64,000 nt of DNA. Source: Okamejei kenojei. Taxonomy: Eukaryota. A program made the translations under genes and the position numbers. The notes under the pieces were generated by a model. That model searched no databases. It was not told the DNA's origin and saw only the letters and a program-made list of their open reading frames with translations. Where the stretch lies: assembly GCA_035221665.1 (NCBI GenBank), contig CM069131.1:81344001-81408000 (forward strand), written 5' to 3'. This document shows positions 45,313 through 50,689 of this stretch, one piece after another. Within the stretch, counting starts at the first letter, position 1. Each line of letters starts with the position of its first letter.

Positions 45313-47409
45313 CTACATGAATGGGTAAAGACATTAAGAAAACTTATGATAGCATTATTAGTTGTCATTCTCTCAACCATAAATTCACACAAAATAATCA
45401 TCTATATGGAGGGGAAAAACCCCCAAAGTGCTAGAGGAACTCAGTAGATCAGGCAGTATCTATGGAGGGAATGGTCAGATGGTATTTAAGGTCGAGCTCC
45501 TTCAGACATGGAGTGGACGAGGGGAAAGCTGGAAGAGAGATGGGGATGAAGCAAAGCAGGCAAGTGATAGATATACAGTGCCCTTCATAGTTTTTGGGAC
45601 AAAGACCCATCAATTATTCATTTGCCTCTTATTCCACAATTTGAGATTTGTAATAGAAAAAAATCACATGTGGTTAAAGTGCACATTGTCAGATGTTATT
45701 AAAGGGTATTTTATGTAGAAATTACAGCTGTGTTTATACACAGTCCCCCCCATTTCAGAGCACCATAATTGTTAGGTATGTAATAGAAATGGTGTTACCT
45801 GCCTCCAAGTTAAAGGGGGAGGAGTGTTAGATATATAATATAATTAGCACATGTGATGTCTTGTGCAAGGACGCATGCGCAGAGAGACTCAAGGTGGCGT
45901 CCTGGAATAAAGAAGCTTGTTAGTGTACTCCAGTGTCTGAGTGTTATTTTAAGTCTGTTCCAAGCACCCAAATACACAACAATTGGTGATGAGGATAAAA
46001 GAACAGAAAATAACAAGGACAGCCAAGGAAAACGAAAACAAGTTAAAATAGAGGTTGTATTTGGAAACAAAGTGGAACAGCACCAAGCAAAACGATTTGG
46101 CGCCAAATGGTTTTGAATTGGCGCCAAAGAAAAAAAACGGTTGGAACGGGAAGCAAGAGCACAAGGAAGACAAGCGGGGCAGTAAGGGCCACCGAGCGCA
46201 GCTGGAAGCTAGGAGCGACCGTGTCAACTTACCTGGAACGTTTTCTACAGTTGTGCAGCCCACAGCCAGGCCCAAGCAGCAGCCATAGACGTCAGGTGAG
46301 GGCCTAGTACCGTGTAGGCCACGGACAGGTCCGGAGAAGCCACCGACGAAAGCCGAGTCTTCAGCCCGGCTGGGAGCAGTCAGCCCGGTGGGGGGAGAAA
46401 GCAGAGAAAGCCCGGTTGGGAGCAGAGTCAGCCTGACCGTGAGCAAAAAAGAGGGTCTGACTGCGTAAGAGAAGCGGACCGGCCGAGTGGGAATGCTGAC
46501 CGCGAGAGAGAAGCGGACCCGGCCCCGAGAGAGAAGCGGGACACAGCATTTACCCAGTCCCCGATGGCAGGGCACAGACCCGACGAGCCGAGCAGCCAGG
46601 CGGGCCATGGTGCCAGAGCAGCAGAGACGGGCCAGAGAGCCAGCGACGAGCGAGCAGCGGGTCTAGCAGAGGCCAGGCGGGCCGAGGAGCCAGCGACGAA
46701 CCGAGCAGCGGGGCCCAGCAGAGCGAGGCTGCTCTGTGGAGCCTCGACGGGCAGAGCAGAGGGGAGCCAGAGACTTACCTTCCACAGGGCGTCCACGGGA
46801 GACAGCAGGCAAGTTAGCGGAGCAGCGGGAGTAGACTTGGCAGCGAGCCAGCGGAGGCAACAGCAACGGCGGAGCCAGCGGAAGCTGCGGAGGTCCGGAG
46901 TGGCTAGCAGTATTTAAAAGTAATGGTGAGGGCCGGGGGAGCCAGCGAAAGTAGCAGCGGAGCTCCGGTGAGGCCAGCAACAAAAGCAACAGTGTCCTTG
47001 GGAGAAGCTCTGGAGAATCTGAGAGGTCGAGGATGCACCAGAGTCCGAAGACCGACAAGCTGGACCGGTGGAATCTTTCAAAGTAAAATCTCGACCGGTG
47101 AAATCCTTCACAATAAAAGCACTGGTTGAATGTAATGTATTGTTCACTATTCCTTCACAGTAAAAGCAGGACTGTTTGGATGGAATGCATTGGCCACTGA
47201 TATTAATAGTAAATCTGTGTGCATAGGAATATGGTTTAAAATGTTCTAGTTGGCTATTAACATGAAATGTTGGTTAATAGTATAAAGTTATTATAATAAT
47301 ATTAAGTAATAGTCAGTAGAATGTTAAAGCATTAAGTCCAAGGCAGAAAACACAGTGAGAGAACAGAATATAGGGCACCTGAATAATAACAGTTAGCGTG
47401 GCTTTTCAA

Positions 47410-47733
47410 ATGGCAGGAAAGTTGCCCCTGTTAGATTCTGGGTGTAATTTTGTGAAATGAACTGATGTCTTGGAGGCTTCGTTCATTTCCAATGATATCA
47501 CTGGAGAGAAGAGAGATTGGTTCATAGTAAGCTTAGGAAGAGAGGGTTATCACACCTTACGTACGTTACTGCGGCCAGCAAAGCCCACGGATAAAACGTA
47601 CGAGGAGTGTAAGGAGGCATTAACTCATTTCTCGCCAAAACCTCCAAGGGCATCCAGAGGCAAGGAGCCTGAACTAAAGAGGGCTCCCTCAACTAGGGAA
47701 TCCCTCAAAGGACAAACGGGAAGTGTAAAGTGA
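47410..47733 (+). pseudogene. Gypsy Gag N-terminal region
   Basis: MAGKLPLLDSGCNFVK*TDVLEASFISNDITGEKRDWFIVSLGREGYHTLRTLLRPAKPTDKTYEECKEALTHFSPKP matches the common Gag pattern F..NDI...G...Y..LR.LL.P.KP.DK..EE...L..HFSPKP. Confidence 0.78.
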
Positions 47734-47857
47734 CAAAAGTCAAGGGCAAAGTGACAGAAGTCAAGGACAAAGTGACAAAAGTCAAGTACCAAGTGACGAA
47801 GGTCAAGTGCAAAAGGCCAAAGGTAAAAGGCAAAGGAAAAAAAGTCAAAGGGAAATT

Positions 47858-48900
47858 GCTATCCAAAGGGCAACCGTAACTATTCAAGCTGCATTCAAGG
47901 GTATGAAGGTACGGAGAGATCCGGAACAAACAGAAGGCAGCAACAGTAATACAAGCAGTATTTAGAAGGCACAGAGTATACCATCTATACAAGGCAATGT
48001 GATTGGCAGCTATAATAGTACAAACCCATTATAGGGCACACCTTCAAATGGAAAGTGATTGCAAGACTTACATGAAGGTACGCAGCAGAGTTGTGCTGCT
48101 TCAGACTGCCTACCGAGGAATGGTTGTTCGAAAGCAATTGCGGTGCATGCACAAATCTGCCTAGGTCATACAGATTATAATCAGATGCATAAACAGTGCC
48201 AGTATTTCAAGAAACTACGCTGGTCTGCCATTGCTGTACAGCAACGATACAGAGCTTGCCAGATAAGAGATGTCCACGTGAGACATTATAATAGTTTGAG
48301 AAAAACAGTGGTTTGTATCCAGGCCTTCTACCGCGGGATTAAAGCCAGAGAATTGGTTGAGAAAATCAAGGCAGCATGCCATATTAAATCATTCATAATG
48401 ATGTGTATTACAAGAAAACGTTTCTTGATGCAAAAGGCGGCTGTAGTCACTCAGCAAGCTGCATACCGTGGTTACCGATCAAGGATATGCTACAGAGCTA
48501 TGCGACAAGCAATCATTTCGATCCAGAGATGGGTACAAAGTATGCAAAATAGGGCATTCCCAGTTTGTGCAATATCAGTCAATGAGGTATGCAACTATTA
48601 CCATTCAGGCTGCCGACAAGAGTATGGTGGTTAGGTAGTGGGTTAAGCAAAAGAGGGCTACTATAAAAGTGCAGTCAGTACTCTGTATGAGTTGGTATAG
48701 GAAAGACTTAAGAAGACAAATAGAGGCACAATAGAAAAGGCTTAAACGATACAAAAGGCTTAAAAGATATAGGAAAGACTTCCTCAAACTGAATCATACC
48801 TTGCTTATGAAGCACGAAAACTATACAGAGCACAAATCAAAACCACTGTTGTATTGCAAAGACAATATAGATCCTATTTCTTGATGAAGAACCAGAAAGG
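47858..48900 (+). pseudogene. ASPM: ASPM-like IQ-motif repeat fragment inside the LTR element
   Basis: Tandem IQ motifs: TIQAAFKGMKVRR, VIQAVFRRHR, IVQTHYRAH, LLQTAYRGMVVRK, AVQQRYRA, CIQAFYRGIKAR, QQAAYRGYRSR, SIQRW, TIQAA, VLQRQYRSY; spacing and wording as in ASPM; a few stops and frameshifts. Confidence 0.82.
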
Positions 48901-50689
48901 TGACATAAGAAGACAACTAGATGAGCAACAGAAAAGGCTTAAACGATACAAAGAACGGTTAAATAATTGTGTGACAATGAATATATAAAGTAGGTGCCCA
49001 CTTGATAACCCCAATGACGTGCTGCCTAGCCTTTCTCAACATCGGAGGAGCATAGGTGAGTGCAGAAGGCTCCCATCACCATCGGGAGTAAATTGATATT
49101 TGGTACCTTGGATTTTTAACATCTAGTCCTGTGTATTTACAAACATAGCTGCTAATAGAAAAGTCTAAAGAAGAGAGGCTTGTCGGTCGAGACAAAAGTA
49201 TGCAGGACCGATTGCGATTATGACACTTCACTTATAGTTCAGCAGGGAGCCTCCTTCACTGAGCAATGGACAAATGGTTATGCATTGCAGAATCTCATTA
49301 AACAACAAGAGCAGATAAATAAGCAGTGAATGGAAATTGAACAACAGAGGAAGCTGCCAGAAAATGAAAACTTGCAGCCATGGGTCAGATCCCACCTACA
49401 AAGAGGAAAACAAAGCAAATACATGAACCAGAAAATGAAACGCAGAATATCAGGAACAGGAAGAAATTTGCAAATTAGATCAGGACATTTAAAAGGGAAG
49501 AGATACAGGCAGAGCTAGAGCAATTAGAAAGTGTTCGTAATTTACACATAAAGGAACGAAAAATCATAACATATAAAACAAGGGGTAATGTATTTGGTTT
49601 AAGGAAGATGGGTGGAATGAAAAAATTATAAGTGCTGGTTTAGATAGGATTATTACAGTTATGAGGATGTATTGCAAGATGAATGTAATAATACCATTTT
49701 GCAACAGTGTATTAAACAATTATATTTTAGGTAAAGAGCATATTACCGTGGTTTAGATATGATTATTACAGTTATGAGGATGTATGGTGACATGACTGTA
49801 ATAATACAATTGTGCAGCAGTGTATTAATCAATGATATGTGAAGTAAAGAGCATATACCGTGCAGGTGAAATTGAGTTAAACGGGGAGGAGTGCGGTGTA
49901 TGTAATAGAAATGGTGTTACCTGTCTCCAAGTTAAAGGGGGAGGAGTGCTGGGTATCTAATAGAAATGGTGTTACCTGCCTCCAAGTTAAAGGGGGAGGA
50001 GTGTTAGGTATGTGATATAATTAGCATATGTGATGTCTTGTGCAAGGACGCATGCGCAGAGACTCAAGGTGGCGTCCTGGAATAAAGAAGCTTGTTAGTG
50101 TACTCCCGTGTCTGACTGTTATTTTAAGTCTGTTCCAAGCACCCAAATACACAACAATAATTGTTGGGACACATGGCTTCACAGGTGTTTGTAATTGCTC
50201 AAGTGAGTTTAAATGCCTCTTTAATGCAGGTATCAGAGAGCTCTCAGCTCCTAGTCTTTCCATCACCGTTGAAAACTTACATTGCTGTTTATCAACATGA
50301 GGACCAAAGTTGTGTCAATGAAAGTCAAAGAAGCCATTATGAGACTGAGAAACAAGAATAAAACTGTTAGACAGCCAAATTAAAACAGCCAAACCTTAGG
50401 CTTACCAAAATCAACTGTTTGGAACATCATTAAGAAGAAAGAGAGCACTGGTGAGCTTACTGGTGTGAAGATGGTGGCGTAGGGGAGAGATAAAAAGGAG
50501 AAAAAAGGTCTGAGATAAAAAGCGTAAAATGCAAAGCTGAACACAGGGATCTGGATAGAAGAAACAGGGGAAGGGATAAAGGAGGGGGTATTACTTGAAA
50601 TTAAAGAATTCAACGTTTATACCTTTAGGCTGTGGATTATTGTTAATCTGCAATTTGAGAGGGAGAAGGTGAAATCGGAAGTGTTGGTA

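Follow-up and report, generated by a model that had tools for sequence, protein, structure and literature searches.

The window analysed here (64,000 nucleotides of the skate Okamejei kenojei; assembly GCA_035221665.1, contig CM069131.1, positions 81,344,001 to 81,408,000 of the forward strand) holds at 45770-50156 one defunct member of a non-autonomous family of Gypsy LTR elements, in which pol has given way to fragments of two host genes, ASPM and TLK2, fused to Gag. The explanation that we favour, at a probability of about 0.6, is that these fragments were captured by template switching, that a helper spread the family, and that its long frame was kept open for translation and not for the sequence of the cargo.

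Boundaries and parts of the insertion

The first-pass annotation, made from the letters of the DNA, had reported near-identical LTRs, a primer-binding site (PBS), a polypurine tract (PPT) and the target-site duplication (TSD) ATAAT, and all of these proved correct. The 5' LTR (45770-45981) and the 3' LTR (49947-50156) agree at 95.7% in alignment; they form a TG...CA pair, and the 5-bp TSD, at 45765-45769 on the left and 50157-50161 on the right, lies within the 4-6 bp of Gypsy LTR elements. The insertion interrupts a high-copy repeat (3157 first-look candidates) which, from its ends, we take to be Tc1-like. All five uninterrupted copies of this repeat cross the insertion site with the 5-mer ATAAT present once (four exactly, one with one mismatch) and continue into the 3' flank. 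Both the PBS (45984) and the PPT (49935-49946) were found, the longer PBS of other copies matching the 3' end of the host tRNA-Ser(GCT). It had also been claimed that pol is missing, and the element indeed aligns to gag-pol relatives in the leader, gag and 3'UTR/LTR only; as the order protease, RT, RNase H, integrase is absent here and present in the parent family, the element is a non-autonomous derivative. Its parts are the following.

45577-45769, + strand: 5' part of the high-copy Tc1-like repeat, the insertion target; its final 5 bases are the left TSD
45770-45981, + strand: 5' LTR, TG...CA, 212 bp, made of a ~160-bp core LTR and one 55-bp unit
45984-45996, + strand: primer-binding site, CpG-decayed; tRNA-Ser(GCT) match in other copies
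45997-47397, + strand: 5' leader, in part common to gag-pol relatives
47398-47645, + strand: Gag N-terminal capsid lobe, ~85 codons, one stop in the present copy
47640-47705, + strand: junction of the in-frame C-terminal capsid lobe loss, with a short remnant of the pre-knuckle gag spacer
47706-47857, + strand: 21-bp tandem linker; source, a 21-nt piece of ASPM from the beginning of the captured segment
47846-48709, + strand: captured ASPM IQ array, drawn from the 3' portion of the large IQ exon of the host, 88% nucleotide identity
48705-48755, + strand: TLK2 exon A, first partial copy (222-nt tandem duplication, then deletion)
48768-48902, + strand: second ASPM segment, two pieces of 91-100% nucleotide identity, with a short private deletion here
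48900-49562, + strand: five consecutive TLK2 exons without introns, coiled-coil region; no kinase exon
48987-49146, strand not assigned: private insertion inside TLK2 exon A, fragment of a young high-copy repeat, 98% to other copies
49563-49934, + strand: 3' untranslated region of gag-pol parental origin; tandem duplications of 113 bp and 55 bp
49935-49946, + strand: polypurine tract
49947-50156, + strand: 3' LTR
50157-50460, + strand: right TSD (50157-50161) and 3' remainder of the Tc1-like target repeat

The first description also holds for the ATG at 47410, for a +1 shift close to 47728, for the stretch of 43 codons between 47729 and 47858, and for the IQ motifs (at least ten, degenerate). 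The claim of few lesions was too generous: in the present copy gag has a stop near 47458, the IQ part is interrupted several times by frame breaks and stops, and 160 bp of foreign sequence are inserted at about 48987-49146.

Gag-pol parent and captured host sequence

A Gypsy Gag N-terminus had been read from the ATG at 47410. Gag it is, but the start codon of the family lies at 47398, four codons upstream and also in frame (present in 27 of 31 aligned copies, absent from this one), and only the N-terminal capsid lobe is retained. Its predicted structure (pLDDT 76.5) shows the capsid fold with one lobe only; the top 35 VIA-align matches of the retained domain are all capsid domains, the best being a copia CA with a modest Z of 8.3 (rmsd 4.3, 82 aligned). 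The retained lobe corresponds to dArc1 residues 44-127 and the deleted part matches 106-251, the loss of the C-terminal lobe having removed ~350 nt of the parent gag in frame. A HMMER search with the gag piece gave 590 matches, and a search of a 5.8-billion set returned no longer relatives of it, which counts as weak evidence.

The parents, putative members of the Mag clade of Gypsy, have gag-N, the 3'UTR, LTR pairs and a PBS in common with the element. They carry Pfam matches to RT, RNase H, integrase and a protease-like domain in Gypsy order, the protease match being below its cut-off, and their Gag has two CCHC-like knuckles. All sampled gag-pol parents are broken. Beyond pol they have just a short 3'UTR and the LTR (L195, L199, L202, L203), with no room for env, and therefore the comparison with oncogene-capturing retroviruses made in the first-pass annotation is kept as an analogy only. 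One genome retains the gag-pol parent, an early form, a tandem-duplication intermediate (copy L192) and a late form. The early form is without the C-terminal capsid lobe and has the zinc knuckles fused to ASPM-TLK2, and in the late form the knuckles are gone and the 21-bp linker has been amplified from ASPM. The knuckle-ASPM junction is carried by 10 of 40 scored loci, and the other 30 stop at it.

ASPM had been named as donor, and comparison with the host's own ASPM locus agrees (88-91% nucleotide identity, 88% for the host exon). Pfam still scores IQ motifs in eight stretches of protein P0001. The donor piece sits inside one exon and is thus uninformative on intron loss; host ASPM has four repeats, none of them closer to the element than the others. 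The Gag-linker-IQ chimera proposed earlier stands as a fusion but was incomplete, as the linker is itself an amplified 21-nt piece of ASPM and TLK2 had been missed. The linker varies in length among copies, and in one of them (L152) the ASPM 21-mer is repeated five times almost perfectly.

TLK2 is represented at 48705-48755 and 48900-49562 by five coiled-coil exons, corresponding to residues ~195-375 of Leucoraja TLK2. The exons are 88-90% identical in nucleotides to host TLK2, apart from one at 75% with deletions; TLK1, at 75-77%, was rejected as donor. Because these exons are joined without introns, as in the maize element Bs1, capture must have been from mRNA. In human TLK2, as outlined in one report, CC1 is required for TLK1 and LC8 binding (PMC6023931). 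About 50 codons of the captured TLK2 are read outside the host frame. Early copies depart from the TLK2 frame in exon C, where four length variants all have the same phase, and the late form regained the exon-E frame; a stop in exon E is common to 20 of 39 matched copies. The family can do without the last ~100 codons.

We regard it as practically certain that the cargo was captured and spread as a unit. The 28-nt ASPM/TLK2 junction has 115 matches (control, 0), all 40 scored candidates (357 at first look) match gag and IQ, and all 40 copies hold ASPM and at least a piece of TLK2 in identical order. A TSD was called in 14 of the 40, and in 8 TG lies exactly at the LTR alignment start. These results bear out the earlier proposal of a non-autonomous family copied as a unit by reverse transcription. 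The family is present in several related species; a natural unbroken Gag-into-IQ frame exists as the Leucoraja erinacea RefSeq protein XP_055489032.1, which was the only return at E<=1e-20 in a near-length search with P0001. Another donor, a later single insertion or an out-of-frame consensus had been named in advance as refuting results, and none of them occurred.

Reading frame, amino-acid change and competing explanations

All six structural junctions keep the frame. At the five junctions inspected by eye we found microhomology of 5-8 nt, and the switch points are common to all copies, again as in Bs1; two microhomologies sit on like codons, and microhomology between two coding sequences may itself bias toward in-frame joins. 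In 14 of 16 anchor intervals the modal length is a multiple of three, the two exceptions adjoining and compensating each other, and early-form junctions are in frame in 4/5, 5/6 and 4/5 measurable copies. A hybrid open frame, the third Bs1-type feature, is seen unbroken over 509 codons in copy L021; together with the Leucoraja protein and the modal lengths, it upholds the suggestion that the parent encoded an in-frame Gag-IQ fusion. Only 11 of 31 individual copies read in frame from the Gag ATG to ASPM because of private indels in each copy, the apparent rate of which may be raised by assembly indels.

Of the disruptions in the main ASPM segment, only a single stop and a single multi-base frameshift track the tree of copies (built with FastTree), both within one five-copy clade; the remaining shared stops are dispersed across the tree, mostly at CGA, CAG and CAA codons. 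Three internal-branch "stop" calls had used host codon context, and only one proved a true shared stop. By rough hand arithmetic, some 9-10 shared-branch disruptions are expected and 2 were seen (P about 0.005). Selection probably kept the frame, and the sequence evidence makes it likely that the fusion was translated while the family spread. Junction contigs were found in one sequencing run guessed as RNA, and the RefSeq model also exists; no run on record as RNA turned up among those listed.

Amino-acid change on the element-only branches looks neutral (26 nonsynonymous to 11 synonymous against a background of 2824:1085, p=0.85), and the dN/dS below 1 that had been expected is absent there. 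Subfamily branches gave 35:13 (p=0.36 against singletons), gag on the late stem 6:3, and IQ core residues were not significantly spared (2/29 versus 38/259, p=0.39). The lower element-versus-host ratio of 39:26 (p=0.001) has two confounding factors, change on the host lineage and homogenisation among the four ASPM repeats of the host. Polarising these changes with the host's other three repeats gave 18:13 (p=0.013), which we rejected as evidence of selection, since an element equidistant from four repeats leaves room for host changes to be misassigned. For the captured ASPM or TLK2 parts no specific job was detected, and nothing points to the spindle or calmodulin targeting once speculated upon.

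We propose that host ASPM and TLK2 mRNAs would have been co-packaged and copied by a reverse transcriptase switching at the 5-8 nt microhomologies, and that the LTR, tRNA-Ser PBS, PPT and parent 3'UTR would have been the cis signals letting a helper gag-pol element copy the RNA. The long frame was likely kept open as the RNA needed translating, and not for the ASPM or TLK2 sequence; shielding of unspliced RNA from nonsense decay would be an equally possible cause. With its capsid N-lobe and very basic helical tail (pI 11.4), the chimera may have co-assembled with helper Gag and held its own RNA by low-specificity charge, which would explain both the loss of the knuckles and the amino-acid drift under an open frame. 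We put this co-assembly or RNA-binding role forward only tentatively. A bolder version, in which the knuckles gave way to ASPM IQ helices and the capsid dimer lobe to a TLK2 coiled coil, so that a working synthetic Gag, possibly calmodulin- or spindle-targeted, outcompeted the helper in skate germ lines, seems unlikely to us.

Among the alternatives, the one that survives best, improbable as we judge it, is that the cargo was a pure passenger: cis signals alone mattered, and in-frame joins came from codon-phased microhomology and chance, with no protein needed. On one hand, the neutral-like ratio, the labile 3' tail with its shared exon-E stop, the stop common to the five-copy clade and the two microhomologies on like codons are what such a history would leave. 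On the other hand, six in-frame junctions have a probability of 1/3^6 = 0.0014 if unbiased, the linker unit is 21 nt, the exon-C variants stay in one phase, the start codon is retained in most copies, and shared disruptions are too few.

More doubtful still is a function of the cargo itself, in which the IQ array would bind calmodulin or accompany ASPM to the spindle and the coiled coil of TLK2 would dimerise with host TLKs, aiding mitotic chromatin access or damping S-phase control. That both donors are cell-cycle genes fits this idea, as do the IQ motifs still scored by Pfam, the choice of the coiled-coil region, the duplicated piece of TLK2 exon A and the exon-E frame regained in the late form. 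However, amino-acid constraint is missing and ~50 TLK2 codons are out of the host frame; moreover, dividing germ cells would in any case be rich in both mRNAs, which would explain their capture without any function.

It is very unlikely that the capsid N-lobe fusion acted as an inhibitor or competitor of helper particles, which the host tolerated or favoured because it restrained the autonomous family. The model for this is RTL8, described in outline as entering PEG10 particles and lowering their abundance (PMC11684626), and the broken state of all sampled parents would suit it, but more than 100 dispersed copies decaying neutrally fit a helper parasite better than a domesticated gene, and the 6:3 ratio of gag on the late stem also argues against it. 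Finally, a one-off ASPM/TLK2 pseudogene in an LTR element, or segmental-duplication copies, might account for the few near-identical or adjacent pairs (e.g. L121/L122), but is refuted by the distinct TSDs, the 115 junction matches, the same switch points and cargo order in 40 of 40 copies over many contigs, and cargo ends that show no poly-A or separate TSD.

Comparison with known systems

LTR gene capture is already known, but the precedents compared here stay at a few copies, while in the skate family fragments of two cell-cycle genes were carried to more than 100 copies in several related species. As all steps from parent to chimera can be read in one genome, the family offers a direct test of why such chimeras are kept, be it for the protein sequence, just for translation, or for no reason at all. 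It has also corrupted annotation, at least one copy being named "ASPM homolog" in RefSeq, which affects ASPM/TLK2 copy-number studies in skates. Among the papers listed by literature searches outside subscription journals, none, judged by its title and the opening of its abstract, describes a skate ASPM/TLK2 LTR family; the family may already carry a repeat-library name.

In acutely transforming gag-onc retroviruses, the Gag N-terminus is joined in frame to host sequence, replication genes are lost and a helper is needed. The skate family resembles them in all these respects, but its parent shows no env, it is inherited through the germline, and its TLK2 fragment excludes the catalytic part. 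RTL8, as outlined in the report cited above, is likewise a capsid-NTD-only Gag derivative of Gypsy origin, but a domesticated and cargo-free host gene, whereas the skate family is mobile and multi-copy.

Crocodilian ERVs with captured nectin3 or KIT-ligand, amplified across related species, are also vertebrate LTR elements that spread with a captured host mRNA; they are described, however, as retroviruses with one near-complete ORF (nectin3 replacing env) under purifying selection (PMC4299795), and the skate Gypsy family has two fragments fused to Gag replacing pol, with no detectable amino-acid constraint. The LTR-mediated animal retrocopies of Tan et al. 2016 (PMC5131818) share with it, as far as that account describes them, partial mRNAs, microsimilarity at switch points, multi-gene chimeras and secondary retroposition. 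Those retrocopies are described as young, and the skate chimera, in contrast, is a large family with subfamilies in several species and underwent further in-frame remodelling.

The closest precedent is maize Bs1, which is summarised as a non-autonomous LTR element with three host-gene segments in a hybrid frame, part of it out of host frame (PMC5131818; PMC13317346), and as present in 1-5 copies per Zea species and reported to be transcribed and translated. Like Bs1, the skate family is non-autonomous, holds several host-gene fragments in one hybrid frame with switch points common to all copies, and reads some cargo out of the host frame; unlike Bs1, it is known here from sequence alone, exceeds 100 copies in a vertebrate, and its intermediates survive.

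The element in the window and the donors of its cargo

The first-pass annotation had described an LTR retroelement carrying a captured host gene, and the observation as a whole turned out to be real:

LTR element, window 45770-50156

Its LTR pair is 95.7% identical, and it lies in the interior of a high-copy repeat labelled Tc1-like (a name based on the repeat's ends). The 5-mer ATAAT occurs only once in 5/5 uninterrupted copies of that repeat, confirming the proposed target site duplication (TSD). At 45984 the primer site has decayed; in other copies the motif matches the 3' end of a host tRNA-Ser(GCT). 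Translation recovered the Gag N-terminus, the 21-bp repeat and at least ten IQ motifs, all three of which had been read before, and private lesions distribute them across several frames. The element also received a fragment (48987-49146, about 160 bp) of a young repeat with 919 first-look candidates at 97-98% identity; other copies of this repeat have the upstream sequence in common and diverge directly past the matched end, which by its sequence looks like a retroposon 3' end. Tandem duplications of 113 bp (49636-49862) and 55 bp (49875-50011) are present as well, and both the polypurine tract and the start of the LTR fall within the 55-bp unit, one of which is now part of the element's LTR.

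As had been predicted, the best protein matches of the IQ part are to ASPM, and in the genome 47846-48709 and 48768-48902 align at 88-91% with the 3' part of host ASPM's large IQ exon. The C-terminal part is a second capture, with a protein match of 65-73% to TLK2, and 48900-49562 corresponds to five consecutive TLK2 exons (coiled-coil exons A-E). These lack their introns, which shows that they were captured from mRNA, and the TLK2 kinase exons are absent from the cargo. The order of donor segments is identical in all 40 first copies. TLK1 was rejected as the donor of 48900-49562 (only 75-77% match). At the protein level, most host TLK2 exons share 84-100% identity with TLK2 of Leucoraja erinacea; given also that the family occurs in that species, the host is probably a skate. 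The host ASPM IQ exon (L040, G000:C10:14490001-14500000) contains four tandem repeats of about 219 codons with 92-94% DNA identity, a pattern suggesting recent expansion or concerted evolution in the lineage.

Size, spread and age of the family

Family status had also been proposed, and it was borne out. A gag+IQ query against the species' own genome yielded 357 first-look candidates; the 40 that were scored all matched, mostly full length and 83-90% identical. The LTR query gave 977 candidates. The 28-nt ASPM/TLK2 junction was matched 115 times at no more than 2 mismatches (reversed control, 0), and a TSD could be assigned in 14 of the first 40. With gag alone there were 304 candidates (150 scored), from which 40 were fetched, 20 likely divergent and 20 spread down the list: ASPM stood behind gag in 35, 31 of these carried TLK2 too, one was a deletion derivative and four had no cargo.

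LTR pairs are 90.5-98.6% identical in the 21 measurable of the first 40 copies. Apart from one outlier, the copies form an almost star-like tree whose terminal branches measure about 2.5-7.5%. The family is old. It was also found in Leucoraja erinacea, and a sequencing-run search returned seven organisms containing 0.26-0.32 of the sampled words. Of 23 runs listed, eight (organisms A-H) were inspected; in seven of them listed contigs bridged an ASPM/TLK2 junction, and in the remaining one they crossed from linker to ASPM. No RNA records were among the runs listed as containing family sequence. In run X20, whose RNA origin is a guess, host TLK2 appears as a spliced contig and the element as low-depth contigs spanning the junctions; read with no silent-region control, these are only a hint of element transcription.

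Several variants were noted. A more diverged subfamily (L119, L121-L128, L130, L132, L134, L150, L151) lost the last TLK2 exons, has longer linkers and often lies close to contig ends or on small chromosomes. In many copies (including L081, L084, L087, L089 and L092) the tRNA-Ser primer-site motif recurs about 350 bp further downstream, and L079, L083, L117 and L132 have a third ASPM/TLK2 unit. TLK2 exons further upstream in some copies, in the 5' leader or ahead of the 5' LTR (L140:142-495, L206:720-824), suggest more recombination among family members.

From a gag-pol parent to the late form

The four gag-only loci are parent-type, and three have Pfam matches to RT, RNase H, integrase, gag or knuckles. 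A knuckle-ASPM junction query gave 10 early-form and 30 parent-type among 40 scored loci, and 20 of the 40, fetched at length, allowed the series to be reconstructed. Its start is an autonomous LTR-gag-pol-3'UTR-LTR element with no room for env. In step 1, about 350 nt of gag were deleted; the lost part matches dArc1 106-251 and the kept part has a predicted capsid-lobe fold, so that the retained portion is, on this modelling, the capsid N-lobe. In step 2, zinc knuckles were joined to ASPM, ASPM to TLK2, and TLK2 back to the parent 3'UTR; the numbering of steps 1 and 2 is arbitrary, as either could come first. A 222-nt ASPM/TLK2 unit was then duplicated (step 3, seen in L192), after which the element lost part of the first unit as well as the knuckles, and the linker arose by amplification of 21 nt from the beginning of the ASPM segment (step 4), an amplification whose onset is seen in L152. 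Parent-type L200 and L206 lack both the C-terminal capsid lobe and ASPM, pol being still present in L200, and may be intermediates or independent deletions.

Short microhomologies occur at all five inspected junctions and also at the TLK2/3'UTR join, in agreement with template switching as modelled by Tan et al. (PMC5131818). Host mRNAs would have been co-packaged and joined by template switching during reverse transcription, and the resulting family would have been mobilised in trans.

The open frame and its possible role

A single Gag-linker-IQ frame had been expected of a consensus; natural copies already carry it unbroken (longest, 509 codons), with in-frame junctions. In Leucoraja erinacea, RefSeq annotates a family copy as 'ASPM homolog isoform X1' (XP_055489032.1); this 290-aa protein fuses Gag, linker and IQ and begins at the family ATG. 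Across 31 aligned copies the modal length was 0 mod 3 in 14 of 16 anchor intervals, and the two out-of-phase intervals, TLK2 exons C-D and D-E, compensate each other; four length variants of C-D have one common phase. The linker is the weakest interval (in frame in 15/30), and 102 of 123 private indels are frameshifting. In the main ASPM segment (72 copies), tree-consistent disruptions are confined to one five-copy clade, by a rough count 2 observed vs about 9-10 expected. The tail of the frame is dispensable: in early copies the TLK2 frame breaks off within exon C, and an exon E stop is common to 20/39 matched copies.

Like the dispensable tail, the pattern of amino-acid change, which is neutral-like, speaks against a protein-specific role. 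The anticipated dN/dS below 1 did not appear on element-only branches (early to late form), where N:S of 26:11 is no different from background decay (p=0.85). Purifying selection there was probably not strong, though 37 changes would still accommodate a moderate effect. Sparing of the IQ core in element copies was not significant.

The most economical reason for the open frame would be a selected translation product whose capsid N-lobe and highly basic tail (59 K+R vs 7 D+E in 285 residues) could enter helper particles and bind RNA without sequence precision. Escape from nonsense decay would keep the frame open with the same signature. A calmodulin-, spindle- or TLK-directed function of the cargo is possible, but this analysis gave it no support, nor did it support the earlier idea of a spindle- or calmodulin-targeted Gag.

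RTL8 enters PEG10 particles (PMC11684626), and the capsid N-lobe chimera could behave likewise towards helper particles. The family did not turn up in the literature searched, and it may already have a name in a repeat library such as Repbase or Dfam. With Bs1 the skate family has multi-gene capture in common; it goes beyond the Bs1 type in being scaled to a large vertebrate family with its intermediates preserved.
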